From a virus, in IMG/VR virus record IMGVR_UViG_3300005805_000044: DNA of 64,000 nucleotides; one strand, given 5' to 3'. The notes beneath the pieces were generated by a model, which worked only from the letters and a program-made list of their open reading frames with translations, ran no database searches and was not told the origin of the DNA. Below, one piece after another: positions 24,324 through 64,000 of this stretch. Each line of letters opens with the position of its first letter. The stretch's first letter is position 1. Made by a program: the position numbers and the translations under genes.

Positions 24324-25391
24324 TTACAGAACGAAACTGTTGACTTTACCCCAAGTTTCGTTTAACCATACCATGTAGTTGGGTAGGTTGTTCCACATTT
24401 TATCCTCGTTGATTAATCTACTAAATGCTAGTTTATTAATTTGAGGAATTGGTTTTTGAATAATTTCTTCTATACGAAGTTGCGTGAAAGATTGAATCTG
24501 CGTATTTTTCAATTGCATCAATTCAAAATTTCTCTCCATTGTCAACTTTTCATTCAATACCTTTTCGTATAGTTTGTATTTGCCTTTGTTGTTTTCTGAA
24601 TAATTGTATAGTTCTTGCAATGAAGATTGACGTTCATCAGCAAGAAATGGAAAACACTTGATAATTGTTTTTAATCCAGCACCGTTGATGCCTGGAATGT
24701 TATCACTTTCATCACCTTCCATTGTTCTATAGAATATGAAATTATTACAAGTGATTCCATATTCATCAACAATTTCTTTACATCCAAATATTTTCTTCTT
24801 GGTAGGACTCCAAATCTTAATTTTGTCACTGGCAAGTTGTAGGAAGTCCTTATCAGACGACATAATTGTGACATTACTGTCTTTGAAAGTTTGTTCAGCC
24901 AAATAAGCAATAGTATCATCTGCCTCAATATTATCAATTGCCATCACAGTAATTGGTAATACATCAAGATAATTGATTAATCTCAACAACTCCATCTTGA
25001 GATTCTTTTGTTCAATATCACTATCAGACATTTCTTCGTAGGTTCTATTGAACTTGATACGAGTCTTACGTCCCTTCTTATATTCTGGATAAATCTTACG
25101 TCGTTTTTGACTACCACCATTACCATCAAATACAACAATAACTCTGGTAGGATTTAATAATTTAATGGCATACCCAACACTCTTCAAGAATCCAGCAATG
25201 CCACCAGTGTGCATACCATCATCATTCATAGATGGCACAGCCATAAATGAACGGATAAAAGTATTCAAACCGTCTACAATAAGGATGTCAGAGTTGGTGG
25301 TTTTTTGAAGACCACCAACTCCAACTTCATCCTTTATGTTCTCAAATAAAGAGAACAACTTCTTTTTTTCGTTGGAAGTAAATCCACTCAT
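24324..25391 (-). CDS. rnh: 5'-3' exonuclease / T4 RNase H-like FEN
   Basis: IVDGLN, VFDG, YKKGR, EADD, SSDKDFLQL, GDESDNIPGING.G. Confidence 0.92.
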   Translation of the reverse strand: MSGFTSNEKKKLFSLFENIKDEVGVGGLQKTTNSDILIVDGLNTFIRSFMAVPSMNDDGMHTGGIAGFLKSVGYAIKLLNPTRVIVVFDGNGGSQKRRKIYPEYKKGRKTRIKFNRTYEEMSDSDIEQKNLKMELLRLINYLDVLPITVMAIDNIEADDTIAYLAEQTFKDSNVTIMSSDKDFLQLASDKIKIWSPTKKKIFGCKEIVDEYGITCNNFIFYRTMEGDESDNIPGINGAGLKTIIKCFPFLADERQSSLQELYNYSENNKGKYKLYEKVLNEKLTMERNFELMQLKNTQIQSFTQLRIEEIIQKPIPQINKLAFSRLINEDKMWNNLPNYMVWLNETWGKVNSFVL

Positions 25392-50573: not shown

Positions 50574-50701
50574 AGGAATGATTGCGCAATCAACTTATAG
50601 TCAGAAACATATGGTTTTGGTTGTGACTTTTTAACAGCATCCTCCTTCAGTTTTTTTGCCTTGAGAACCTTCTGAAGAGTGTTTTTTACTTTCTCATTCA
50701 T
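50570..50701 (-). CDS. 43-aa basic peptide (not in ORF track)
   Basis: MNEKVKNTLQKVLKAKKLKEDAVKKSQPKPYVSDYKLIAQSFL; overlaps both neighbours and fills the gap exactly. Confidence 0.6.
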   Translation of the reverse strand: MNEKVKNTLQKVLKAKKLKEDAVKKSQPKPYVSDYKLIAQSFL

Positions 50702-50963
50702 ACATTTTTGTAATTTTGACCACAAGTTTTCCAGAGCCTTTTATGACTCTGTGATACGTTTCTTTAGGTATAAATATTGAACCCTCCATCAAACACGGAA
50801 GATTATTATCCAATTGAACCTCCCAACCACCGTTATTCTCCACAACCTCAACCAAACGATTTTCTTTGTCCAAATGCCACTCTAATTCATGACTATCTAT
50901 ATCGGAATTAAATTCACGAATATACTGATTATTCCCCAAACTTGTCTCTGTATATGGTCTCAT
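50694..50963 (-). CDS. small cupin-fold protein
   Basis: WHLDKE.R...W..QLD...IFIPKETYHRVIKG. Confidence 0.7.
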   Translation of the reverse strand: MRPYTETSLGNNQYIREFNSDIDSHELEWHLDKENRLVEVVENNGGWEVQLDNNLPCLMEGSIFIPKETYHRVIKGSGKLVVKITKMYE

Positions 50964-51961
50964 ACTCTAAACGAATTTATATAAGTATCAGTATCACGTT
51001 TTAATTCGTCTTCTGGAACATTATCTAAATTATCACCATACTTCTGTAACCAATATTGTTTGATCTTACCCAACATTGGTCCTGGCTTTATATTAAAGTT
51101 TTGCATAATCCAGTCACCACCATATTTAGATTTCACCGGAGTAAATGATTCAATTTCTTTTTGTTTATCCAACAACATCTGATACTTGTCTGGAAATAAC
51201 CGTTTCAAGAAATAGTCTGGGTCACTAATCTGTTTATGTTTATTCAAACCAATCAATGACTTTCTAATATAATCAGCACTAGGTCTACCAGATCTTACAC
51301 GTTTTCTGTCACTATGATTCATAGTCTGACCCTTATAATCATCGCTATCAAACATAGGACTCCTACTGATGAACTTAATTACATCATCATTGTTCTGTAT
51401 ACGGTCATAATCATCCAATACATCACCATAACCAAGTATCTTCAAACCATCTTTTAGATTCTTACTAATTAGTATATCGTGATGTCTACCACTCTTATCT
51501 ACATAAATCTTTTGAAAGCCTGTGGTAGCATACTTGTATCCATTTTGTCTAGCCATTACCCCAAGTATTCCACTCAAATCTCCAAGTGCTAGATACATTC
51601 TTTGTGCTTCAAAGTCTTCGTCATTATCTGAATGTATAAAATCTATATGAACATTCTTGCCTGTATTACTTTTATACAATACACTATAGATATTACCGTT
51701 ACGACTATAATCTATTACTTTATCCCCCAATTGTGATTTTAGAGTATTGGCTACATCACCATTACCAGATACAACCACATCAATATCGCCGTGGTCTGCT
51801 TTAGATGGTAATGCTTTACTCAATTCAAACTTATTGAATTTGTTATTTAACAAACTTTTAAGCTCGTCAAAGATACTATTCATTTCAGCAGTAGACACTC
51901 TACTGGCTCTAGTGCCAAAGAGTTTACCACCTTCAACTAATAGATCCATCAACTTTATCAT
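50960..51961 (-). CDS. Pol-beta-type nucleotidyltransferase with CCA-enzyme-like C-terminal tail
   Basis: KADHGDIDVVV, VHIDFI, C-terminal YGGDWIM..NIKPGPMLGKIK; N-terminal MIKLMDLLVE leader. Confidence 0.7.
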   Translation of the reverse strand: MIKLMDLLVEGGKLFGTRASRVSTAEMNSIFDELKSLLNNKFNKFELSKALPSKADHGDIDVVVSGNGDVANTLKSQLGDKVIDYSRNGNIYSVLYKSNTGKNVHIDFIHSDNDEDFEAQRMYLALGDLSGILGVMARQNGYKYATTGFQKIYVDKSGRHHDILISKNLKDGLKILGYGDVLDDYDRIQNNDDVIKFISRSPMFDSDDYKGQTMNHSDRKRVRSGRPSADYIRKSLIGLNKHKQISDPDYFLKRLFPDKYQMLLDKQKEIESFTPVKSKYGGDWIMQNFNIKPGPMLGKIKQYWLQKYGDNLDNVPEDELKRDTDTYINSFRV

Positions 51962-52491
51962 AGGTTTATAAAGTATTTGCCGTTGGGGCCACTATATTTG
52001 AATCGCGTAATTGGTAAAGATATATTTAGATTATCTTTGATATGTGGAAAGCTACCCTTCTTCACATAAGCTAACGTCATATGAGGATTGTAGCTTGGAT
52101 AACTATCAGTATTTGGATAAACGTCACATCTACGTCTCAATTCGGTCAATATAGGACTCTTTTCAACTTCAAACTTGACCACATCAAATTTATCATTCTC
52201 AAACAAATTGAGTGCTTTTAATACAACATTAAATGGCTTTACACCTTGAAGGATTCTAGCAACATCGGGTCTACCAATATCTGGTTCAAATCCATACTTG
52301 AGAGTCACATGAGGTTCTTCATCATAACCATATGTAGGATCATTAGGATCAGTATATAGTATTTGCGGTGGTATTGCGGTTCTACCAAGTCTAATTACAT
52401 GTGGACCATAAGTAGGACTTACATGTGCCATTAAACAACCTTTTTCAACGTGTCTATTTTCTACGAGTAACATATTTTCTAATAATTTCAC
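51958..52491 (-). CDS. 2H phosphoesterase (T4 57B/Acb1-like)
   Basis: two HxT motifs: EPHVTLKYG and YNPHMTLAY. Confidence 0.8.
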   Translation of the reverse strand: MKLLENMLLVENRHVEKGCLMAHVSPTYGPHVIRLGRTAIPPQILYTDPNDPTYGYDEEPHVTLKYGFEPDIGRPDVARILQGVKPFNVVLKALNLFENDKFDVVKFEVEKSPILTELRRRCDVYPNTDSYPSYNPHMTLAYVKKGSFPHIKDNLNISLPITRFKYSGPNGKYFINL

Positions 52492-53725
52492 GAATCAAAT
52501 GTTCTTTCTTTACCAATTGGTCCAAAGGCACACCTCTATACTTTTGTCTTAGTTGCGCAATTGGCATACCATATTGTTTTTCAGCTTGAGCAATCAGATT
52601 GTATCTATCTTGTTTCTCTTTTTCTAAAGATGCCAATTTACGAGCAACTACAGTAGCAACAGTATTCTTAATGTTATCATTATAATACTTCTCACCCGAT
52701 ACCAAAAGATCATTCAATATTTTAATTTCTACTTCTAACCCATTTACTTCTTTTTCTAGATTATCTTTTTCAGCAGGCGTAAGTTTCGCTCCTGTTGTAT
52801 GAAGTTTTCCTCTCTTTTCAATAAACTCTTGAGTCTTATCATCAATTACTTTTTCCAAACTAGGTTGTTGTTGTATTTTCTCAACTCCCCAAGCAGGATA
52901 ATCAAATTCACTACCAATCGGTGTAGTGGACAAATTACTATAAGTTACCTTTATTGATACATTATTACCTTTAACAGCTGTAACATCCGCTTTTATACCC
53001 AGGCCTGGCATTTCTACTTTGTCACCCACTTTGAATTCAACATCTGCTTTATCTGCAACAGAAGGTTTAGGTGGAGGAGTTTCTTTCTTAGGTTCTTCTT
53101 TGTCATACAGTTCATTGTATGACCTTATTTTGCTACCAATTTCATACAAACACTCAGTTGGATTATATCCATTAAACTCTATGACTTTTTCATATTGATC
53201 TTTGTATGGAATTACCTTGTCTTTATTATAATCCCAGAATGTTACAATGATAGCTTTACCACTTGGTATTGTGCTTTCAATTTGTAAATCCAAATTTTCA
53301 GGTGGTTTACCATCTGTATTGTCCACCTCAAAGATTCTACCTTTCATGATAGGATCCGAATATTGACCCATTCTACCCAACCCCTTTAGAATATTTTCCA
53401 AATCCAAATGACCACCACCATTACTACTAGCCTTTAATCGTTTGATACCTTTTTGAGCCCAATAATCCAATTCTTGTTCTCTCTTATTAGAATCATACTT
53501 TATTTCTGGAGCGTCCTCCAATTCTTTGATTTCTTTTAATACATCACTATCATCTGAGTAAAATTCTTTCTTGTTGTCACTATATCCAAATATTGACTTT
53601 TTACCACTATCGTCTTTATAAACAAAAAAAGCACATCTGTTAGCTGGAGAAGTGTAGCTATACAACTTTCTCTTGTAACTAACAGTGTCGGGATTTTCCA
53701 CCAAAATATCAATTAGTTTAACCAT
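52454..53725 (-). CDS. hypothetical late protein with KOW/SH3-like segment
   Basis: MVKLIDILVE leader; FKVGDKVE...V; C-terminal LIREIIRKY. Confidence 0.6.
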   Translation of the reverse strand: MVKLIDILVENPDTVSYKRKLYSYTSPANRCAFFVYKDDSGKKSIFGYSDNKKEFYSDDSDVLKEIKELEDAPEIKYDSNKREQELDYWAQKGIKRLKASSNGGGHLDLENILKGLGRMGQYSDPIMKGRIFEVDNTDGKPPENLDLQIESTIPSGKAIIVTFWDYNKDKVIPYKDQYEKVIEFNGYNPTECLYEIGSKIRSYNELYDKEEPKKETPPPKPSVADKADVEFKVGDKVEMPGLGIKADVTAVKGNNVSIKVTYSNLSTTPIGSEFDYPAWGVEKIQQQPSLEKVIDDKTQEFIEKRGKLHTTGAKLTPAEKDNLEKEVNGLEVEIKILNDLLVSGEKYYNDNIKNTVATVVARKLASLEKEKQDRYNLIAQAEKQYGMPIAQLRQKYRGVPLDQLVKKEHLIREIIRKYVTRRK

Positions 53726-53730
53726 AAATT

Positions 53731-54333
53731 TTACCAGTATTTTCCTTTACCCTTGTTTCCTAAACTACGAATACGATGACTACGACAACTCCAATAACCA
53801 GCTGTAGTTCTATCTTTCTTTTGACTACATCTGTGACGTGCAGCAAAACTCTTACGACGAGCCTTGTTACCAGCTCTACTTCTCATATTAGGATCACCAA
53901 AAGTTACCTTCTTTACATTGCCGTTTTTTGATTTGACATACACAGCATACTTCTTTGGACCGCCTGGAGTTCTGAATGGTCTATTGAGATGAACAGTGCG
54001 ACCTCTATGTTTCAACTCCATGATCAAATCCTCAACAACCTCAATAGGCGCATCAAGATACACTTCACGACCTTCAAACATCTCTTTTTTACCCAAATCA
54101 CTCTCGACTAATTCGGCATCTGAATCACACAGTTCGATCTTGTTTTCAAAATATAATTTACGAACTTCTTCCAATAATTCAAAATATGATTCACTGTAGG
54201 TTCTGAAGATGGTCTCTGATAAAGGTAATTGTTTAGTTAAATGATACTTAAGATTGTCACTGACAGACACATCTTCAGTCAATGACATCCCACACAATTC
54301 ATCACTTTCAATAAGATCGTTTAATTTAATCAT
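53731..54333 (-). CDS. hypothetical protein: acidic N-half, very basic C-domain (DUF6321/DUF5754-like)
   Basis: MIKLNDLIE leader; KKYAVYV...VTFGD...RRKSFAARHRC...AGYWSC. Confidence 0.65.
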   Translation of the reverse strand: MIKLNDLIESDELCGMSLTEDVSVSDNLKYHLTKQLPLSETIFRTYSESYFELLEEVRKLYFENKIELCDSDAELVESDLGKKEMFEGREVYLDAPIEVVEDLIMELKHRGRTVHLNRPFRTPGGPKKYAVYVKSKNGNVKKVTFGDPNMRSRAGNKARRKSFAARHRCSQKKDRTTAGYWSCRSHRIRSLGNKGKGKYW

Positions 54334-54344
54334 AGATATAAATA

Positions 54345-55274
54345 TTATTTACCATACTTGTTCGTAGCCTTTAATTCACTAATTAGAATTTTTTCTGGGT
54401 CATTCAAATTCTTCTCCAATTCAATAAATAATTCATCTAAAGTATACTTTTTATCGGTTCTTTGTTGAATCTGTCGTAAACGGTCAATTGTATCAACAAC
54501 ACTATCCAATGTATCTTTGTATCGGTTGAATACAGGCAGTTCAATGTGTTTACTGAATTCCATCGACTTTGGAGCAATACCTTTAAGTATATTAATAAAG
54601 AATGCGATTACATGTTCTACTAACGAGAATATCGCACCAGCAATTGGGTTTGTAGCAGCTAAGAATCGTAACACCATGAAACATATCAAGAATATCAATA
54701 TGCCAGTCACACCTATAGTCACGAATCTTTTTAGTCCATACATTACACCACCAAGACCCATCCAACTATTCACTTCATCAACAGTAACTTGCAATCTATC
54801 AGCCTTTTTCGCCACTTGAGAAGCCTGTTCTTCCAAACCTTTAATCTGAGACTCATATACATCTTCTATTTCTTTTTGTCGAGTTTGAAGATCCAATATT
54901 TCAGTATCTTTTTCTTTTAACAGTTTTACACCTTTATCTTTTTCTTTATCAATTTCACTGTTTAAAAGATCAGTTATTTGTTTTATTTTGTTCAATTCGT
55001 CAATATTTGGATTACCAGCAATACTCAATATTCTAGAATTATAATCCAAAGCAGTCTTGACTTGAACTGGAGGATTGGTCACAGACTTCAATGAATACTC
55101 TGTGCCAGCAGCCAAAGTAGAAACCTCTTGTAACTTTTCTTCATCGTTTTTTGCCTTTTCTACGCGGGTTACTGCAAGTGCATCTTTGGTCTTTTGAACC
55201 TTATCTGCATTTGGTGTTTTGCAACCGCCGAACAACAACAAAGAAGCCAAAAATAGCATTAATGTTTTTTGCAT
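54345..55274 (-). CDS. lipoprotein with coiled coil and downstream TM segment (spanin-like)
   Basis: lipobox LFGG-C18, about 150-aa helical region, TM FVTIGVTGILIFLICFMVL. Confidence 0.6.
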   Translation of the reverse strand: MQKTLMLFLASLLLFGGCKTPNADKVQKTKDALAVTRVEKAKNDEEKLQEVSTLAAGTEYSLKSVTNPPVQVKTALDYNSRILSIAGNPNIDELNKIKQITDLLNSEIDKEKDKGVKLLKEKDTEILDLQTRQKEIEDVYESQIKGLEEQASQVAKKADRLQVTVDEVNSWMGLGGVMYGLKRFVTIGVTGILIFLICFMVLRFLAATNPIAGAIFSLVEHVIAFFINILKGIAPKSMEFSKHIELPVFNRYKDTLDSVVDTIDRLRQIQQRTDKKYTLDELFIELEKNLNDPEKILISELKATNKYGK

Positions 55275-55306
55275 ATACCTATAAATATCTATCTTAGTAT
55301 AAAAAC

Positions 55307-55335
55307 TTGTTTATTTATCTGGGTTGGTATATACT
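55307..55335 (+). promoter_or_regulatory. mom promoter region (sigma70-like plus embedded TATTTAT)
   Basis: TTGTTT-17 nt-TATACT, ATG 6 nt later; TATTTAT at 55312-55318. Confidence 0.5.
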
Positions 55336-55341
55336 GATAAT

Positions 55342-56115
55342 ATGTCTAATTATTGTGATACTTCATTAGTTTATCTGCAGCCGATCAACAAGTCGGTAGC
55401 ACGTAATCTTATTGAAAAAAATCACTATACACACAAGTGGACCAGTTGTTCAGTGGCATATGGTGTTTATTATAAAGACTATATAGAAAGTAGTTTTTTT
55501 GGTGGATTTGACAGTAAATTGATAGGAGTATTGGTCTATGGTAATGCTGTAGGACGTAATTCAAGCACCAGTATTAGTCCACTATTAACCAATGATAATG
55601 TATTTGAATTGACACGTTTATGGATACAAGATGGTTTTGGCAAGAACATAGAGAGTTTTTGTATAGCTGAAAGTTTTAGGTATTTAAACCGAGATTATCC
55701 AAAAATTAAGTGTATTTTGAGTTATGCTGACAGCGAAGTTGGTCATGCTGGAACCATCTATCAAGCCACTGGATTTTTATATCAGGGTGACAATTATGTT
55801 GATATTGCATTGATGCCCAACTACAGTGTTAGTTTGGTTGGGCCACCCAACTATGATTGGATACACAGTAGAAACGTCTATGGTAGATGGAAAACACACA
55901 ATGTAGACAAGTTAAAAGAACGTATTGGTAAAACCTTCTGGCGTAAACGTGAAAGTGGCAAACATCGTTATATCAAGTTCATTAGTAACAAGATTGACAA
56001 CAAAAAGTTGACCAAATCATTAATACATAAATTACTTCCATATCCAAAAACTACATCATTTACAGAAGAAATAATGGAAGTTACCGTCAAAAATACCAAT
56101 CAATTTTTCCAATAA
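55342..56115 (+). CDS. mom: Mom-family adenine-modification enzyme (GNAT-like)
   Basis: HY, ELTRLW, ES, ILSYAD..GH.GTIYQATGF.Y.G, KHRY. Confidence 0.85.
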   Translation: MSNYCDTSLVYLQPINKSVARNLIEKNHYTHKWTSCSVAYGVYYKDYIESSFFGGFDSKLIGVLVYGNAVGRNSSTSISPLLTNDNVFELTRLWIQDGFGKNIESFCIAESFRYLNRDYPKIKCILSYADSEVGHAGTIYQATGFLYQGDNYVDIALMPNYSVSLVGPPNYDWIHSRNVYGRWKTHNVDKLKERIGKTFWRKRESGKHRYIKFISNKIDNKKLTKSLIHKLLPYPKTTSFTEEIMEVTVKNTNQFFQ

Positions 56116-56150
56116 AAAACCCACCAGCCTTTCGACTGATGGGTTTATTG
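56112..56150. terminator. probable bidirectional terminator between mom and the major capsid gene
   Basis: AAACCCA(C)CAG/CTG(A)TGGGTTT stem flanked by A- and T-rich tracts between convergent genes. Confidence 0.75.
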
Positions 56151-56172
56151 TTTTAATTTAGACTAATCCAAA

Positions 56173-57903
56173 TTATACGGTGTCTAGATCAGCGATCAAG
56201 ACCTTACCATAGAACTCAGGACGCACTACCTTCTTAGCGTAGCGAGTCATCACACCACGGCGTGGAGTGAAGTTCACTGGATCATAGACCAATGGAGTTT
56301 GGATGAGTGGGATGTATGGAGCATACACAGCACCAGTCTCCAAGAAGTTGCTACCACGGAAACCAACGAGGATAGCATTATCGGTCATGTATGGGTTCTT
56401 GTAAACTTGGAAGCGACTTGCGAAGCTACCAACGCGGCTTACACCCATTGCGAACTTAGCTTGGTCACCGTCAGTGTTCACAACATATCCTGGGATTGAT
56501 TCCAAGATGGTTGCTACGTCTGGGGAACATACCAAGAAGTTAGCACCACCACGTAGAGTCAATTGGTGAATCTTGTTAGAGACCTTTTGGATCTTGTTAC
56601 CAAGAGTTTGGAACCAAGTGCTCTTTACGTAAGCAGTTCTGTTTGGAGAAGCATTTACGTTACGAGTGAATGATGCAACATCAGTAGTGTTGTTGATGGT
56701 CTTAGTGAATTCAGTTCCGATTTGGGCGGACCAAGCTTCAGTGGTTTGACCAGTTACAGACTCGTTCAACATGTCTAGGATTTCGAGATCGATTTCCATA
56801 GAAACATATTCACTCAATAGAGCAGTAAGTTCTGCTTCTGCGTCAATAGAATGATATGCGTTCAAGTCTTGAGCCAATTCTGGAGTCCAGACAGCCTTCA
56901 ACTTACGGGTCTTAGCAACGATTGGTTCGCTCTTAAGTTCCAAGTTGACTTCTGGGATCTTGATGTCAGTGCCGATAGATTGGGTATATACGTTGTTAGC
57001 AACACCTGAACCTTCACCGGCGGTCTTACCATCTTCGAAGTCACCACGTAGGTTGTCCGAAGGTTGAACAGTGTAGTTCAAACGAGCAGTGGTCGATGGA
57101 GCAGCTGCGGCAGAAGATTGACTTACAAACAAGTTAATTTGATAGTATGGGTTTGCCAAGCTACCAGTGTTAACTGCGGTTGCGTAAGTGTTCAATACTG
57201 TGTAAGCTACACCAGAACTGTTTTGAACTTGGAATGAACGAACAGCGTTCAAATCAGCGTTCCAGATGTTACCAGAACCAGGATTTGCTTCGGTGTTGTC
57301 GTCAAGGTTGAATGTCACCTTGTAAACGCCTGGAACGTTACCAGAACCGTTTACAGAAGCACTGAATGTTGAATCGAATTGAAGATCGTTCCAACTTGCA
57401 GTAGCAACCAATACAGTAGCATTAGAGCTAGAAACGGTGCGCTCAGAATAAGCGTAACGTCCTTGGCCATAAAGACCATTTACTGGTGCATCAGTTGATC
57501 CAAGCTTCTTTTGGTTACCACCGAACAAGCTTTCGCCAGCAGTATGACCCAATTGAGTGCCAGAACCATACTTGAAGTCTAAGTAGAAGATAAGACCGCT
57601 TGGGAGATTCATTGGTTGAACCGATACGAATTCCTTAGCAGCGATCTCAGCAAATACACGACGAACCAATGGTAGAGCAACGCCTGCCCATTGTTCACTG
57701 TTTGCGCTGGTTCCAGTTGTTGAAGCTTCGTCCAACAATTGTTTTGCTTGATTTTCCAAGAGGATTGACATGTGTGCCTTTTCAACACCGGTGGTGTTTT
57801 CTAGAAGACCTGTCTTTTCCCACTTGTTTTGAAGACCACGGGTTTCAGCCATTAGCTTTGCCTGTGGGTTCATATTATTTGTTAGTAGACTCTTTACGTC
57901 CAT
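56173..57903 (-). CDS. gp23: major capsid protein (T4 gp23-like)
   Basis: LLENQ, PLVRR, VQPM..PSGLIF, KTRKLKA.WTPELAQDL.AYH.IDAEAEL, YAPYIPL, FTPRRG.MTRYA. Confidence 0.97.
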   Translation of the reverse strand: MDVKSLLTNNMNPQAKLMAETRGLQNKWEKTGLLENTTGVEKAHMSILLENQAKQLLDEASTTGTSANSEQWAGVALPLVRRVFAEIAAKEFVSVQPMNLPSGLIFYLDFKYGSGTQLGHTAGESLFGGNQKKLGSTDAPVNGLYGQGRYAYSERTVSSSNATVLVATASWNDLQFDSTFSASVNGSGNVPGVYKVTFNLDDNTEANPGSGNIWNADLNAVRSFQVQNSSGVAYTVLNTYATAVNTGSLANPYYQINLFVSQSSAAAAPSTTARLNYTVQPSDNLRGDFEDGKTAGEGSGVANNVYTQSIGTDIKIPEVNLELKSEPIVAKTRKLKAVWTPELAQDLNAYHSIDAEAELTALLSEYVSMEIDLEILDMLNESVTGQTTEAWSAQIGTEFTKTINNTTDVASFTRNVNASPNRTAYVKSTWFQTLGNKIQKVSNKIHQLTLRGGANFLVCSPDVATILESIPGYVVNTDGDQAKFAMGVSRVGSFASRFQVYKNPYMTDNAILVGFRGSNFLETGAVYAPYIPLIQTPLVYDPVNFTPRRGVMTRYAKKVVRPEFYGKVLIADLDTV

Positions 57904-57948
57904 AATATTATTTCCTATCTTTTGGTTTGTTAATTACTCGCAAACAAA

Positions 57949-59031
57949 TTACTTCTTGATTCCTGCGAGTTTTTGGAATCTTGAAGCCATTACATCAGCT
58001 TGAGGTTCTACAATCGTAGACTCAGGCTTTGTGCTGGATACTGGTTTGCTTGCCAAACCTTCGGTGATAGTTGTGACAGTCGCATTTGACTTTTTCTTGG
58101 CGACTGATCCACCGGCATTAAATGATTCGGCCAAAACGGTGTATGCCAATTTGATTTCACGCAATGTCTTGGTGAGATCAAATGTGTTGATGACCTTCAA
58201 CTTTTGGTCTTCGGTCAAATTCTTACCCTTGAATAGCTTATTGGTATAAAGCAATTTAGCATTCAAAAGATTGGTTTCTTCAAGAACACCCTTTAAATAC
58301 TTAACGGTGTTTTGATGTTCCTTCAATTGATTCTTCAATGCTTCATTTTCTTCATTAATAGCTACCAAAGCTTCTGCCATTTCTTCAGCAGTTACTTCTT
58401 CCTCTTCCATTGGAGAAGGAACTTGTCCAGCAACTGGTGCTACTGGAGCTGGTGCTGCTGCGGGTGCTGCAGCTGGAGCAGCTGCGGCTGGTGCTGGTGC
58501 TGCTGCTGTTGGATCAACAGCAGCTGGAGCTGGAGCCGGAACTTGTCCTTCTTCTTCCAATTCAGCAAGAAGTTCATCAAGATCAACAGTTTCTGCTGAA
58601 TCGTCGTCTGCAACTTCTTCTTCTTCAGCAACAACTTCTTTTTGTTCTTCTTTGTCGCCTTCATGTTCCAACTCAGCAAGAATTTCATCCAACTCTTCGC
58701 TGGTCAACTCTTCACCCTCTTCAAGTTTTGCATCGAATTCTTGAGATCCAGGTGGAACAGTGTTTTTCTTGGCTGCGGTTGATGGTTGAACAACGTGTTG
58801 ACTGCTTACAGTGTTACCGTCGTCTTTACCAATACCTGAAGAAGAAAGTTTTTCTTCAATCTTACCTTCTTCAGTTTTTTCTGTGTCTGCTGCTTCTTCC
58901 TTGAGTTTTTCTGCGAACATTTCTTTCATGCTCTTTGCGAAGTTTTCCTCAAGAAAAGTTTTTGCATTAGCAATTGCAGTTTCACGAACTGCTTTTGCGT
59001 CTGCGATGCTTTCTTTTAATAGATCGCTCAT
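57949..59031 (-). CDS. gp22: prohead core scaffolding protein (gp22-like)
   Basis: directly upstream of the capsid gene; acidic Glu-rich coiled coil, PA-rich linker, C-terminal RFQKLAGI; AGGAAAGG SD. Confidence 0.8.
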   Translation of the reverse strand: MSDLLKESIADAKAVRETAIANAKTFLEENFAKSMKEMFAEKLKEEAADTEKTEEGKIEEKLSSSGIGKDDGNTVSSQHVVQPSTAAKKNTVPPGSQEFDAKLEEGEELTSEELDEILAELEHEGDKEEQKEVVAEEEEVADDDSAETVDLDELLAELEEEGQVPAPAPAAVDPTAAAPAPAAAAPAAAPAAAPAPVAPVAGQVPSPMEEEEVTAEEMAEALVAINEENEALKNQLKEHQNTVKYLKGVLEETNLLNAKLLYTNKLFKGKNLTEDQKLKVINTFDLTKTLREIKLAYTVLAESFNAGGSVAKKKSNATVTTITEGLASKPVSSTKPESTIVEPQADVMASRFQKLAGIKK

Positions 59032-59132
59032 ATTAATTTTACCTTTCCTGTTTGTTTTTTTGGTGAAGTTATTGGAGAACTCCAAAGAAGATTGAATTTG
59101 TAGTGGCATCAAAGACATTGACGCATTTGATA

Positions 59133-59179
59133 ATAAATATAATATAAAATATACAAATTCATTTTTTTTTAATATTTAT
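59133..59179. promoter_or_regulatory. divergent pair of TATTTAT late elements
   Basis: ATAAATA at 59133-59139 (for - strand scaffold) and TATTTAT at 59173-59179 (for + strand gene). Confidence 0.7.
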
Positions 59180-59185
59180 TGATAT

Positions 59186-59794
59186 ATGCCAGCACAAAGC
59201 GAAAAACAAGCAAAATATTTTAGATTGGTGAGAGCTGTTCAAAAAGGAGAAGTTCCTGCGAGTAAAGTATCAAAACAATTAAGAAAAACTGCAAAGTCAA
59301 TTTCTCCTAAAGCTGCTAAAGATTTTACAAAGGTAAAAGAAATTGTAAATAAATACATCAATGAAGCAGAATATACGTCCGCAAAAATGAAAGAAGTTCC
59401 AGATAAAACTTTGGATGATGTATTGAGAGAAAACTCAGGAGTAAAGTTTGATAATGATGAATTATTAACTTTTCAAAACAAACAAAGTGGATTTGGTGGA
59501 TTTGGTAAAGTAAATTTTGTTCACAAGAAAAGCACAAACGAAATAAGTGCAACTGTAACAAGTAATGAATCTAACAAAATTTACGTATTTAAAAAATTAG
59601 TCAACAACCAAAACCCAGGCCTTTATAACTATGGGTGTTTCATAGAAATTTCGCTTGCAAAAGACAGTGAAGACGAAAAAGAAAATAAACCAAAAGTAGT
59701 ATACTTACTTAGTAGTATTTTTAATAATAAAGGCGAAGAAAAGACAAAGATATTAGCAGATTTCATTGATAGGATTAATTCATATGGACTATAA
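59186..59794 (+). CDS. hypothetical protein with DUF3008-like N-terminus
   Basis: MPAQSEKQ...AVQKGE...AKDF, then KVKEIVNKYINE. Confidence 0.65.
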   Translation: MPAQSEKQAKYFRLVRAVQKGEVPASKVSKQLRKTAKSISPKAAKDFTKVKEIVNKYINEAEYTSAKMKEVPDKTLDDVLRENSGVKFDNDELLTFQNKQSGFGGFGKVNFVHKKSTNEISATVTSNESNKIYVFKKLVNNQNPGLYNYGCFIEISLAKDSEDEKENKPKVVYLLSSIFNNKGEEKTKILADFIDRINSYGL

Positions 59795-60149
59795 AACACT
59801 ATACAGTCAAGCAAAATTAAACAGTTTCTTAAATAAAGCAAAAGATCAAGAAATTGAGCCTGACAAATTTAAACTAATAGAAATTGATCATCCAAATGGT
59901 TGGAACTTCAATGAAATAGATACATTGGGTGATATGGGATTTAAAATTGACAACGATACCGATATGGTATGTGAAGTTGAAATTCCCACACTAGAAATGA
60001 TGGAAGAAAAAGTTCCAGTTAGAGTATATAAAAACGAAAACGGTTATGTCCTTGAGACTAACCGTCAATACGTTTTTGAGAGTTTTGAAAAGATGATTGA
60101 ATTTATCGATTCAATACCATCTGATCCAAAAATGAGACATGTTAAATAA
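59784..60149 (+). CDS. hypothetical protein
   Basis: overlaps upstream gene end; acidic. Confidence 0.6.
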   Translation: MDYKTLYSQAKLNSFLNKAKDQEIEPDKFKLIEIDHPNGWNFNEIDTLGDMGFKIDNDTDMVCEVEIPTLEMMEEKVPVRVYKNENGYVLETNRQYVFESFEKMIEFIDSIPSDPKMRHVK

Positions 60150-60151
60150 CC

Positions 60152-60697
60152 TTATTTATTTGATTGATAAGATGGTTGTTGATGTGGTTGTGTAATTGGT
60201 TGAGCCCCAGGCAACTCTTTATTTTCAGCAGCTGTTCCCCAAGCAGCTGGATCTGGTGGACTTGCAGTGCTTACTGAACCTTGATGATTTTGAGTTTGAA
60301 ATGCTTGAGGAGCTTCTGTTACTGGATCAGCAATTTCAAAATAACGTTCCAACTTCAAACCAATTTCTTCATAAAGCATTTCAAGTTGATGTTCAACACC
60401 TTTAATCTTGCTTGCTTCTTCATGCAATTGACGTGCCATTTTCTTTACATCTTTCATGTCACGTTCAATCATCTTTGCTTCCATCCACTCGTCACACTCT
60501 TTTAGTGCATAACGTTCTGCCAAATTTACTGCTTCCATGATCTTCGCAGCAGTGGCATAAATACACTCAGCTTTTAGATCTTTACGATATTCATTATATG
60601 CTTTGACTGTTTCACGGAGCTTGACCTTTTCCTCTTTGGTCAACGGAGCATATGCTGTTTCAGTAGAGTTTTCTACGAGATGTTTGAGCTTAATCAT
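60152..60697 (-). CDS. hypothetical late head-associated protein
   Basis: TATTTAT 7 nt upstream; MIKLKHLVE leader; helical; LERYFEI. Confidence 0.65.
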   Translation of the reverse strand: MIKLKHLVENSTETAYAPLTKEEKVKLRETVKAYNEYRKDLKAECIYATAAKIMEAVNLAERYALKECDEWMEAKMIERDMKDVKKMARQLHEEASKIKGVEHQLEMLYEEIGLKLERYFEIADPVTEAPQAFQTQNHQGSVSTASPPDPAAWGTAAENKELPGAQPITQPHQQPSYQSNK

Positions 60698-60737
60698 ATA
60701 TACAATAAATATGTTGAAAAATGAAATTCGACTACAA

Positions 60738-61436
60738 TTATTTTCTTATTAATATACCAATACCCAAGAAGTCACCAGACCACTCTTTCAATTCATTTGG
60801 ATATTGTTGCGCAAACTCAATATACTCAAATCGTGGATCATTCTTTATTTCATTCCATAATTTAATAACACCTAGACCACCATGTGAAATATCATGAAAG
60901 ACAATATATTTGGTATTTGGGTTATTTTCAAAAAGTCTAAAATCGTAAGAACATCCTTCATAATCATGGTTACCATCTATAAAAACCATCTCAATATTAT
61001 TATTATCTACGAATGTTTTAAACTCCGGTGAATCACTACGCATGTGTAAATACGTATAGTCTGTATAATTGTCATATATTCCCAATATATCAGACTTTGG
61101 CATCAAATCACAAGCATATAACTTTATGTTAGGGTTGTGTTTCATCAACACTTCGGATATTAAAATAAAATTACCTCCCCAACGAACTCCAATTTCACAG
61201 TAAGATTTAACGTTTAATGTTTGTAACCATTTTATGTATGGCGCCAATTGAATTGGATATTGCCACATCTTGATACCTTTACCAAAATATTCACTAAGAG
61301 TATTTGGCATTTCACCAAGGGCTTCATCGTTCATTCCAAACGTGGGAATCAAATTTATTAGTTCGTCAATAGACAATTTATCAAATTTGTCGCCACCAAT
61401 AACATTAATAGTATCTTCCAACGATATAACAGGCAT
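60738..61436 (-). CDS. class I SAM-dependent methyltransferase (Methyltransf_24-like)
   Basis: YCEIGVRWGG, VFIDGNHDYEG...D, IVFHDI, W. Confidence 0.8.
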   Translation of the reverse strand: MPVISLEDTINVIGGDKFDKLSIDELINLIPTFGMNDEALGEMPNTLSEYFGKGIKMWQYPIQLAPYIKWLQTLNVKSYCEIGVRWGGNFILISEVLMKHNPNIKLYACDLMPKSDILGIYDNYTDYTYLHMRSDSPEFKTFVDNNNIEMVFIDGNHDYEGCSYDFRLFENNPNTKYIVFHDISHGGLGVIKLWNEIKNDPRFEYIEFAQQYPNELKEWSGDFLGIGILIRK

Positions 61437-61441
61437 ACAAC

Positions 61442-62041
61442 TTATAGTTCAGAAATAATATTATGAATAATTCTCTCTATATTGTTATATGGGTTAATAA
61501 TTTTATTTTCTACGCTTTCATTGATTTTACCTTGTGGATACATGAAAGCTCCTTGTGTAGAAGGATTACTTACAAAATCAAATGCGATCAAGTCAAAATC
61601 ATCTTGAACAACATCCGCACCTTCTCTCATATCCTTTTTAACACTGCCCAATCCACGACTACTGATGCCCAAAAGAATACCAGCTTTTAATAAATCTTTC
61701 AAAATATTACCACTTGGGGTTGGCAATATTTCTACGGTTCCTACCAAGTCGTCACCATCCCAACCCATATCTACAATGTTATGACTAACATTCTTTAAGT
61801 TAACGACGCTACTTTCTGGATGATCTAACTCACCCATTGCACGACGTTGTTTAACAAAATTATCCATATACTTTGTTGCTTCACGTTCCAAAATAGTCTT
61901 AGGATAAACACGACCGTTTTGGTTTTTTGCATCTGCACGTTGTAAAGTGCCGGTCACAAGTAGTTTACCATTGTTCAACGACTCATTGAGTGATGTTTTT
62001 TTAAATTCAAATGGTAATACGTCAATTAATACTGTTTTCAT
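61442..62041 (-). CDS. gp21: prohead core protease (T4 gp21-like)
   Basis: NQNGRVYP, GELDHP, VSH, TPSG, GISSRGLGS, DFVSNPS. Confidence 0.95.
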   Translation of the reverse strand: MKTVLIDVLPFEFKKTSLNESLNNGKLLVTGTLQRADAKNQNGRVYPKTILEREATKYMDNFVKQRRAMGELDHPESSVVNLKNVSHNIVDMGWDGDDLVGTVEILPTPSGNILKDLLKAGILLGISSRGLGSVKKDMREGADVVQDDFDLIAFDFVSNPSTQGAFMYPQGKINESVENKIINPYNNIERIIHNIISEL

Positions 62042-62042
62042 A

Positions 62043-63173
62043 TTATGCTGATGGTTGTTGTGGTGCTGGTTGGGCAGGTTCTTCTGGTTTAGCCGGTGCT
62101 GGTTGTTCCTTTGAAGTTACAACGTTTGATGCACCTGCGGATGTTTGTTTGGAAGGATCAACCAAAGCTTGTGATTTAGCAATTTGATATTTGTCTTTTT
62201 GCTTAATATCCGCTGGTCCTAAAATTTTTATCTTAAAACCTGGTTTTACAAAAAACTTTGCGGTCTTTTGTTTGTTTTCTTCACGACCAATTATGATAAT
62301 AACATATCTATCATAATAATAATCAATTTGAACACCAGTTACATTGATTGTGTAATCTGTTTCTGGTTGTTTATATCCTTTACTAGCACGAACCACAATC
62401 TTTTTATTTAAAATTTGATCTTGAATCTTCTTTTGAAGTTCCAATTTTGACTTCTCAGTAGTATTTTTTAACTTGGTATCAAAATTAGTAAAATCAGGTT
62501 GAATATCATATGATTGAACATTGATTGTTGGTGCTGAAGGTTTTTGTTGTGTTGGCTGCGCAGCTGGTTGTGGTTGTGAATTAGCAGGTGCTTCGTCCGC
62601 TTCTTTTGTCAAATATTTTGCTTTTTTATATCCTTCAATTATATTCAATGCTTTTTTAGAAATTTCTGTTGTAGGCATTATTGTTTGTTTATAACCAGCA
62701 AGACCAGGATCTAGTTCTGGGTCACCATGTTGAACCAATCCATTTTTATCTTTATAAGTTGCAACTGGTTCAATATTTTGTGCTGGAGTAATATATGCAG
62801 GTTCGCTATACATTTGATTTTCCAATTCAAGATCTTTATCTCTTTTAACTGGTTTTGCCAATTTAAATCCCAATTGAGTAGCAGCTCTTACATTGCCTGG
62901 TCCTCTTCTTGAAAAAGCAAATGGAGTCAAATATGCTCCAGCAGCACTACTTGTAGAAGCTCCTACATCTTCATTTTTCTTCTTAAGTTGAGCATCTACT
63001 TTTTTTTCAATCTCTTTACGAGCTGAAGAAGGCAGTTTTTCGGCGTGTGATTGAAGCCACGCATGATATTGTTCTTTATCAATACGAGCAAGTTCGCTAT
63101 CTCTATAAATTTGAGCGTATTTTTTTACAATATCTCTGAAGGGATCACCTGATTCTTTAAGAGGCTTTTTCAT
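62043..63173 (-). CDS. hypothetical head-module protein
   Basis: YLTPFAF motif, Q/P-rich linkers, several [LI]xE-type sites. Confidence 0.65.
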   Translation of the reverse strand: MKKPLKESGDPFRDIVKKYAQIYRDSELARIDKEQYHAWLQSHAEKLPSSARKEIEKKVDAQLKKKNEDVGASTSSAAGAYLTPFAFSRRGPGNVRAATQLGFKLAKPVKRDKDLELENQMYSEPAYITPAQNIEPVATYKDKNGLVQHGDPELDPGLAGYKQTIMPTTEISKKALNIIEGYKKAKYLTKEADEAPANSQPQPAAQPTQQKPSAPTINVQSYDIQPDFTNFDTKLKNTTEKSKLELQKKIQDQILNKKIVVRASKGYKQPETDYTINVTGVQIDYYYDRYVIIIIGREENKQKTAKFFVKPGFKIKILGPADIKQKDKYQIAKSQALVDPSKQTSAGASNVVTSKEQPAPAKPEEPAQPAPQQPSA

Positions 63174-64000
63174 TGGCAAGTTTATTCAATTCTTCAATCA
63201 ATTCATAAGCGCTTAAAAGACTGGTCAAATGATTTTCTTTTACTACACCTGTGATTGTTTTATTTGAAAGTTGAGAAACAGTTTCGTTGAGTTTGATCTT
63301 AATAATATCACTCTTTACCAATATTGCTCTTTCCTTAAGAACATCTGCAACACGTTTATACTCTTTATTAACAAATTCAGTGAACTTGTTAGTATTTGAT
63401 ACGTTTGTAATATATTCTTTTAACAACGCTTTTTGCGAAGGCAACAAAGACGAATACTTTTTGTTGAAGTTTTCGATCAAGAACTTATATGCGAGTAACT
63501 TCACTTCGGCTGGTTGAGAACTATATACATCCAAAGCTTGTTCTTCGTTCTTTCTTTCCTTTGTTAAATTTTCTACTACAAATTCTCTTGCTTCTAAAAT
63601 TTCTTCAACATCAAACTTTACGTCATCTGAACTTTGATTTTCAAACAACTTATAAACAGAAGCATACAATTTATAATTTGGAATTTTATTTTTCAAAAAT
63701 TCATCAATGTTAAATTTTTCTTTGATCTCTTTTACTAAATTATATTTTTGGTTATTTAAATCACGTTCATTAATTTTAGAACGTGTTTGTAATACCACAT
63801 TCAAAATACGATCAGCAGACTCAGAATTTTTTGAAGATTGACCAATAATAAAATTATAAAGTTGAAACTCTTTTCCGAGCGCAGTTCCTTCGTTGAAGTA
63901 TTTGAACATCAAGTTCTTGGTGAATGACTCATCACGACCTGCCAAAATATCTGCGGTAATTTGTCGAGTTAGTAATTCAAACAATACTCCGCTATTCTTA
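63157..64000 (-). CDS. hypothetical head-module protein (5' end beyond window)
   Basis: frame open to window edge (KNSGVLFELLTRQIT...); helical. Confidence 0.7.
   Translation of the reverse strand, partial: KNSGVLFELLTRQITADILAGRDESFTKNLMFKYFNEGTALGKEFQLYNFIIGQSSKNSESADRILNVVLQTRSKINERDLNNQKYNLVKEIKEKFNIDEFLKNKIPNYKLYASVYKLFENQSSDDVKFDVEEILEAREFVVENLTKERKNEEQALDVYSSQPAEVKLLAYKFLIENFNKKYSSLLPSQKALLKEYITNVSNTNKFTEFVNKEYKRVADVLKERAILVKSDIIKIKLNETVSQLSNKTITGVVKENHLTSLLSAYELIEELNKLANEKAS

Follow-up and report, generated by a model that had tools for sequence, protein, structure and literature searches.

Why do several unrelated genes of one phage begin with the same few amino acids? The question is raised by a 64,000-nucleotide stretch of the IMG/VR virus record IMGVR_UViG_3300005805_000044 (hereafter the window, meaning the whole stretch of DNA that was analysed), where the pattern M[IV]KLx[DH][LI][LIV](x)E opens four minus-strand genes (starts at 51961, 53725, 54333 and 60697). 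The window comes from a freshwater T4-type phage, and the region concerned is the late, minus-strand structural part of a T4-like genome. An earlier interpretation made without database searches (the sequence-only reading) had taken this leader for an address tag that loads proteins into the phage head. The computational analyses able to refute this idea all came out in its favour. We consider it likely that the 9-10 residue N-terminus is a capsid-targeting propeptide of the type of the T4 capsid-targeting sequence (CTS), in which case the tagged proteins would be packaged into the head, cleaved there and injected.

The shared leader in the window

The four leaders were found at their exact positions on the minus strand, each heading a long open reading frame (ORF). 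They are MIKLMDLLVE (10 codons, 51932-51961) in a 333-aa nucleotidyltransferase (50960-51961), MVKLIDILVE (53696-53725) in a 423-aa protein (52454-53725), MIKLNDLIE (9 codons, 54307-54333) in a 200-aa protein (53731-54333) that is the first gene of a tagged operon, and MIKLKHLVE (60671-60697) in a 181-aa protein (60152-60697). A six-frame search of the window with M[IVL]KL..[LIVM][LIVM].?E returned exactly four matches, each at the first codon of a long minus-strand ORF. The tags all end in [LIV]-x-E or L-[IV]-E. As had been proposed, what follows the leader is unrelated from one protein to the next: past it, the proteins form separate BLASTP families with differing or no Pfam matches. A looser leader on a 2H phosphoesterase (51958-52491, minus strand), given as MKLLENMLLVE in the sequence-only reading, is real but its start codon is uncertain. 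The gene may start at GTG 52491, with a 38-nt overlap with the upstream gene and the leader VKLLENMLLVE (52459-52491), or at an ATG six codons later (MLLVE). MSDLLKE, also mentioned in that reading, is the true start of the scaffold protein (59031), and the same start is used in relatives.

The tagged genes are late-type. The heptamer TATTTAT lies at 54338-54344 and 60705-60711, i.e. 5-14 nt upstream of genes 54333 and 60697, and genes 53725, 52491 and 51961 stand behind 54333 in the same tightly packed operon. In the window this element occurs on the coding strand upstream of 20 of the 71 called genes, mostly tail, neck and head genes, and it is about three times more frequent on the minus strand (32 occurrences) than on the plus strand (11). 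Its strand bias and placement fit a putative late-promoter element unlike T4's TATAAATA. None of the early or replication genes of the window carries the leader, so the motif is not equally common on early genes.

The leader is conserved as a peptide and at N-termini

We fetched 80 IMG/VR loci anchored on the major capsid protein (MCP; 64-97% identity) and called their ORFs mechanically. The strict tag pattern was present at 52 of 1181 N-termini and at 5 of 6227 internal methionines of these loci. A looser, T4-style pattern gave 87 of 1181 N-termini versus 15 of 6227 internal methionines (odds ratio 33, Fisher p = 8.5e-55). Hence, the search across relatives that had been suggested from the sequence reveals an N-terminal excess far beyond chance. 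The same signal appears when no pattern is imposed: MIKL is the commonest first tetrapeptide, opening 14 of 233 protein families (6 for the runner-up). The logo of 53 non-redundant tagged genes reads M1, I2 (85%), K3 (68%), L4 (92%), K5 (60%), D/N/H6, L/I7, L/I/V8, x9 and E10, the 9-residue form lacking x9. This gives the consensus M-I-K-L-K-(D/N/H)-(L/I)-(L/I/V)-x-E, about MIKLKDLIxE, of 9-10 residues. I2, K3, K5 and D6 are strongly conserved even though the search pattern left positions 2, 3, 5 and 6 free.

The conservation does not extend to the DNA. Leu4 is encoded by TTA, CTA, CTT, TTG and CTC, and the four leaders of the window differ at most synonymous sites and have unrelated upstream DNA. 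Because the codons vary synonymously and the upstream DNA is unrelated, selection acts on the peptide and not on the DNA. This bears directly on the possibility that the leader is the footprint of a recombination cassette, i.e. a short stretch of DNA at gene starts conserved for gene swapping and not as a peptide. Tagged genes do lie in a fast-changing locus, where phages with 97% identical MCPs differ by three genes, but the nucleotides of the four window leaders and of their upstream regions are not conserved and only the peptide is. We regard such a footprint as extremely improbable.

A degenerate DNA pattern for MIKLKD(L/F)IxE matched at least 120 IMG/VR stretches. We fetched 80 of these loci, where all 86 matches open ORFs of 54 to at least 395 aa (10 of them end at the locus edge), and these 86 tagged ORFs group into 33 clusters unrelated to one another. 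When the codons were permuted, the pattern had no match in IMG/VR. As a cellular control we screened 185,579 prokaryote species, each represented by a single genome (596 Gb in all), which gave 14 matches, the level expected by chance. Three of the 14 are on contigs of a single metagenome-assembled genome, four are in tiny ORFs and three are in one protein family of the Bacteriovoracaceae. The tagged genes on the first three contigs (L232, L240 and L241, from the Flavobacteriales genome NAT55) belong to cargo families also seen on the viral contigs. These three are probably of phage origin and were binned with a bacterium, and they may hint at a Flavobacteriales host. The Bacteriovoracaceae loci (L230, L231 and L233, Peredibacter) encode a 270-aa cellular protein family of predatory bacteria that starts with MIKFKDLISE, probably a chance resemblance to the tag.

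The shared start could also be an adaptation for translation initiation, with A/U-rich, unstructured first codons allowing high expression and the peptide itself having no function. ATT, AAA, TTA and GAT predominate among the codons, the G+C content of the clade is 30-36%, and the Shine-Dalgarno sequence is weak or absent upstream of many tagged genes. Yet, specific amino acids are kept at specific positions with synonymous and G/C-containing codons (CTC, CTA, TTG, GTG), and the permuted pattern of the same codons is never found in IMG/VR. Highly expressed late genes, such as those encoding the MCP, the sheath and the tube, are untagged, the tag being restricted to approximately 2-7% of the genes. 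Finally, the glutamate that ends the tag is invariant in alignments anchored on the cargo. An effect on translation alone is thus a very unlikely explanation of the leader.

A cleavage-type junction shared with head proteins

If the leader is a propeptide, a protease should be at hand. The gp21-like protease noticed nearby in the sequence-only reading is a member of the Peptidase_S77 family (61442-62041, minus strand; 106.8 bits for a Pfam cut-off of 27, E = 1.3e-30). It is 34% identical to T4 gp21 and matches PDB entry 5JBL (E = 7e-19). Its His74 and Ser127 align with His85 and Ser140, the catalytic residues of T4 gp21 (PMC12991175).

The end of the tag behaves as a cleavage-type junction. 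In 20 orthologues of the nucleotidyltransferase, chosen by similarity of the cargo, [LIV]xE always stands directly before an invariant GGKLFG. This junction is kept whether the tag has 10 residues or contains extra ones (range 0-7), e.g. MIKLTDILKESASKLKE|GG and MIKLAPIAKTFIKE|GG, and several orthologues have two [LIV]xE sites. All 20 homologues of the 423-aa protein have a variant of the leader, with a conserved junction (hydrophobic-x-E|NPDTV) and, in one case, a double site. The window's 2H protein has the junction VKLLENMLLVE|NRHVEKGC, and its orthologue in one relative (L081) starts with MNRHVEKGC, exactly at the predicted cut, with in-frame stops upstream and without the leader. Pfam domains of tagged proteins begin 10-30 residues past the tag. 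In AlphaFold2 models of two cargos, the nucleotidyltransferase and the 423-aa protein, residues 1-12 have a pLDDT (predicted local distance difference test) below 50 and the remainder is well modelled (the rest of the nucleotidyltransferase averages 86). From the untagged 2H orthologue, the starts of the Pfam domains and these models, the tag is a detachable add-on.

Similar sites are found in the head proteins themselves. LLDE|ASTTG in the window's MCP (56173-57903, minus strand) aligns with the known cut of T4 gp23, FLTE|AEIGG, and with LLRE|STTT of T4 gp24 (MAFFT), and the maturation cut is predicted after LLDE59. The propeptide region of 46 MCPs of the clade has four conserved hydrophobic-x-E sites. 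The scaffold (57949-59031, minus strand) has 18 [LI]xE sites and, with 4.6 per 100 aa, is denser in this motif than any other of the window's larger proteins. A full leader heads the homologue of the protein encoded upstream of the protease in some relatives, MSKLKNIIKE in L066 and MISLVKLITE in L081. In some members of the clade the tag heads a conserved gene between the protease and the scaffold. We also observed that E|ASTTGT of the predicted MCP cut recurs among relatives as ...NE|ASTTGT, in the homologues of the protein that precedes the protease. With E|STTT of T4 gp24, this recurrence suggests that residues past the cut may be recognised as well. The N-terminus of the MCP itself resembles the tag (MDVKSLLT in the window, MSDIKSLLTE in relatives).

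These junctions also weigh on a third alternative, in which the tag serves for docking to, or recognition by, another shared partner, such as a chaperone, a modifying enzyme of the kind acting on ribosomally synthesised and post-translationally modified peptides, or a tail or membrane assembly site, and its terminal glutamate is incidental. Some tagged genes do lie outside head modules, and S77 proteases are universal in T4-like phages, so that their co-occurrence with the tag does not discriminate between partners. On the other hand, a hydrophobic-x-Glu junction that survives insertions and is sometimes doubled is predicted by the protease model and not by docking alone, and in some members of the clade the same tag heads the conserved gene lying between the protease and the scaffold, as well as the homologue of the gene upstream of the protease. 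A radical-SAM enzyme, considered as a partner of the tag, was rejected: Radical_SAM (PF04055) had no match in G043 (complete), G033 (87% complete) and Mel-JY01 (complete), and is thus missing from three of the five complete or near-complete tag-bearing genomes, all of which encode S77. We consider another partner unlikely, and it retains some weight because the universality of S77 among T4-like phages does not discriminate against it.

The tagged proteins

Which proteins would be delivered by a capsid-targeting propeptide? The sequence-only reading spoke of diverse enzymes, which holds for the nucleotidyltransferase and the 2H protein but less so for the proteins at 60152-60697 and 53731-54333, which are probably core or DNA-binding internal proteins. 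The nucleotidyltransferase belongs to phrog_24943 and has a fold like that of Pol beta/lambda, with Foldseek matches to the palm and thumb of Pol X (E = 1e-6). It has a single [LI]xE in 333 aa, the one ending the tag, when approximately four would be expected from the window average. We had considered a depletion of internal [LI]xE sites as evidence for the tag model and dropped it, since it is true for the nucleotidyltransferase only and not for the 2H and 423-aa proteins. The 2H protein matches Pfam 2_5_RNA_ligase2 (E = 7e-13), of the 2H/LigT phosphoesterases. Its match to Acb1, which counters the cyclic-oligonucleotide-based anti-phage signalling system (CBASS), is below the Pfam cut-off and we make no claim of it. 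A sequence search of the PDB gave nothing useful for either enzyme. In the AlphaFold2 model of the 423-aa protein, a KOW/SH3-like domain lies between an N-terminal domain and a C-terminal coiled coil. This protein had no match in the protein atlas, and the fold search matched the KOW/SH3-like middle domain only, with no functional match.

The two other tagged proteins of the window have a different character. The 200-aa protein (53731-54333) has an acidic N-terminal half (isoelectric point 4.2) with seven [LI]xE and a basic C-terminal domain (residues 108-200, isoelectric point 11.8, phrog_7595) with none. It looks like a DNA-binding internal protein of which the basic part would remain after trimming. 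The 181-aa protein (60152-60697) is a coiled-coil protein, also with seven [LI]xE (3.9 per 100 aa for a window mean of 1.33). Because both are rich in cleavage motifs, like scaffold and core proteins, they are probably not enzymes.

The cargo of the relatives is broader. It includes a CCA-adding/poly(A) polymerase with an HD domain, GNAT acetyltransferases, AAA_33/zeta-type kinases, NUDIX hydrolases, an NT5C/HAD nucleotidase, more 2H enzymes, and GP88 and PGDYG proteins. One tagged cargo has a sub-threshold match to ART-PolyVal (a weak ADP-ribosyltransferase). Many others are small and Cys-rich or belong to no known family, and no relative of the Cys-rich cargo was found in cultured phages.

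Distribution of the tag and co-occurrence with the protease

The tag-bearing contigs encode MCPs that are 56-65% identical to that of the window and hence form one broad clade. All tagged cargo clusters belong to this single aquatic T4-like clade. Pooling our sets, we count 168 tagged genes in 49 cargo clusters, with a median length of 162 aa. Most tag-bearing contigs have a CheckV completeness of 10-50%. S77 is encoded in 19 of the 44 tag-bearing records, including all five that are at least 75% complete. A complete 197-kb genome of the clade (G043) has five tagged genes out of 287, a number similar to those of the window and of T4, and in relatives, G043 included, the tagged gene between protease and scaffold occupies the same position. 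The tag is absent from the nearest record (G001), a 37.7-kb fragment.

Two cultured phages carry the tag. They are Microcystis phage Mel-JY01 and Flavobacterium phage vB_FspM_immuto (immuto). Their MCPs are 51-52% identical to the window's, and the nearest Straboviridae MCPs in the same search, from Aeromonas phages, are only approximately 26% identical. The protease is annotated in both. Flavobacterium phage immuto has the starts MIKLIDLLTE (position 24977 of its record) and MKKLIRIVE (113962). Mel-JY01 has four consecutive ones at 60.3-62.8 kb (MIKLKSLLQE, MIKLKSLLKE, MIKLMSLVTE and MIKLKQLLNE), with positions 60276 and 62056 among them. In this region of Mel-JY01 (60276-63099; L212 4277-7100), three paralogues share the tag followed by ISDRVWH(L/V)T, one of them being shortened to 61 aa, and the fourth frame (MIKLKQLLNE) is interrupted by stop codons and unannotated. 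These paralogues adjoin helicase and replication genes, not head genes. Other cultured, marine T4-like phages (HTVC008M, P-SSM2, RM378 and KVP40) showed no excess of tag-like starts relative to a reversed-pattern control, and therefore T4-like phages do not carry the tag in general.

Comparison with known targeting sequences

The capsid-targeting sequence of T4 was reportedly described by Mullaney and Black in 1996. It is present on the internal proteins IPI, IPII and IPIII and on Alt, and is removed by gp21 (PMC3012670, PMC9026906). That diverse internal proteins of T-even phages can have only the CTS in common is already known (PMC3012670; PMC9026906). The likeness to the clade's tag is extensive. 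In both cases an N-terminal segment of approximately 10 residues, a propeptide in T4 and a putative one in the clade, stands on unrelated proteins. Its positions 4, 7 and 8 are hydrophobic, position 6 is acidic and position 10 is a glutamate, and it ends in the L/I-x-E motif of an S77 protease from the same genome. Both have few tagged genes per genome and a fast turnover of cargo. Amber-suppressor mutagenesis in T4 assigned residues 4 and 7 to targeting and residues 8 and 10 to processing (PMC9026906). The most conserved positions of the tag are L4, L/I7, L/I/V8 and E10, where T4 has Y4, F7, I8 and E10, a correspondence that is a pattern match only. In the T4 record, IPII and IPIII begin with MKTYQEFIAE|A and gp24 with MAKINELLRE|S. 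The latter propeptide, M-x-K-(I/L)-x-(D/E)-L-(L/I)-x-E in 10 residues cut by gp21, is the closest match to the tag, but it belongs to a shell protein and not to internal cargo.

There are also clear differences. The T4 CTS reads MKTYQEFIAE, compared with MIKLKDLIxE in the clade, and the two lineages are distant (MCPs approximately 26% identical). The clade's putative cargo repertoire is much larger and enzyme-rich (49 clusters in a small sample), and in the window the tagged genes are arranged as a late operon next to the MCP gene. In the giant phages phiKZ, 201phi2-1 and SPN3US, head-internal proteins are also cut after a glutamate by a diverged gp21 homologue, and paralogues share N-terminal ends thought to serve in targeting (PMC5694885). 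However, these propeptides are mostly longer than 100 residues, end in (S/A/G)-x-E, and share their ends between paralogues and not between unrelated proteins (PMC5694885). The Dar antirestriction proteins of phage P1 resemble our reading of the tagged cargo: they are reportedly loaded into the head, injected as a counter-defence and need an N-terminal targeting part, and the term capsid targeting sequence is in use (PMC9024508). P1 is another type of phage, and is not known to have a short S77-type tag common to many proteins. In the literature searched we found no mention of a MIKLKDL motif in phages, and a search by name returned no virion proteomics of immuto or Mel-JY01. New here are the lineage and consensus of the tag, the large scale of its use and the abundance of enzymes among the tagged proteins, the likely mechanism itself being already known from T4.

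How the tag would work

By analogy with T4, tagged proteins would be made late in infection together with the head proteins. The amphipathic tag would dock the cargo onto the scaffold core, so that it becomes enclosed as the shell forms, and the S77 prohead protease would then cut after the terminal glutamate (hydrophobic-x-Glu), freeing the mature protein inside the head. The mature cargo might stay bound to the DNA as an internal protein or exit with the DNA at infection.

Several observations weigh against this capsid-targeting interpretation. The likeness to the T4 CTS spans 10 residues and is one of pattern, not a demonstrable homology. S77 is found in all T4-like phages, so its co-occurrence with the tag is necessary for the model and does not discriminate. 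In Mel-JY01 and in the complete G043 several tagged genes are far from the head module, some beside replication genes. The 2H and 423-aa cargos show no depletion of internal [LI]xE sites. Finally, where a host starts translation without Shine-Dalgarno sequences, the A/T-rich codons of the tag would be favourable for initiation as well.

It is important to distinguish targeting itself from a broader and more tentative proposal, to which we give somewhat less than an even chance. The tag may be a clade-wide portable packaging code with which these phages preload their heads with fast-changing enzymes, injected to disarm defences based on nucleotide signalling or RNA cleavage before phage genes are expressed. 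The enzymes would be 2H phosphodiesterases, NUDIX hydrolases, CCA-adding and other nucleotidyltransferases, P-loop kinases, GNAT and ADP-ribosyltransferase-like proteins, in a clade that would be globally distributed. If so, the tag would list the injected effectors of uncultured phages directly from sequence. Already if it works as in T4, a 10-residue pattern predicts the capsid-borne proteins of hundreds of uncultured aquatic phages and points to candidate injected counter-defence enzymes, most of them without known family. The T4 address code (positions 4, 7 and 8 hydrophobic, position 10 Glu) would then be old and common to very distant T4-like lineages. The cultured phages that carry the tag, immuto and Mel-JY01, open the way to direct tests and to the engineering of protein delivery outside E. 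coli.

Gene order and turnover around the tagged genes

The head module is read on the minus strand, from high to low coordinates. A core-type protein (62043-63179), with an N-terminus ending in LKE|SGDPF, adjoins the protease upstream and has the position of the T4 core proteins gp67/gp68. The protease (61442-62041), identified by Pfam, PDB and alignment, is followed by a methyltransferase of the Methyltransf_24 family (60738-61436) and by the gene of the tagged 181-aa protein (60152-60697), which is conserved in the head module. Two plus-strand genes separate the latter from the scaffold (57949-59031). The MCP gene (56173-57903) comes next, with its propeptide (delta) region at 57727-57903, and directly after it lie one plus-strand gene, a 309-aa lipoprotein-like gene (54345-55274, minus strand) with the signal …LLLFGGC, and the tightly packed tagged operon. 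The genes of this minus-strand operon start at 54333 (200 aa), 53725 (423 aa), 52491 (2H), 51961 (nucleotidyltransferase) and 50963 (89 aa).

The locus between the MCP and the neck genes (MSANLDQDRVRWPG..., 50694-55274 in the window versus 12628-20788 in L004) is fast-changing. L004, whose MCP is 97% identical to that of the window, has three additional genes in the locus of the tagged operon: a tagged 167-aa PGDYG-like gene, a gene for a 726-aa protein and one for a 265-aa AAA_33/zeta-type kinase starting with MNLLELLKKHRLTE. Such a three-gene difference in the operon at 97% MCP identity means that the cargo set turns over fast. Other relatives have quite different tagged genes at the same locus. 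The methyltransferase gene next to the protease is absent at that spot from L009 and L011, and is present in the window and in L004. The 309-aa lipoprotein-like protein has its own TATTTAT, a lipoprotein-type signal, a coiled-coil middle part and hydrophobic C-terminal segments, and its gene is kept at the head of the tagged operon in relatives.

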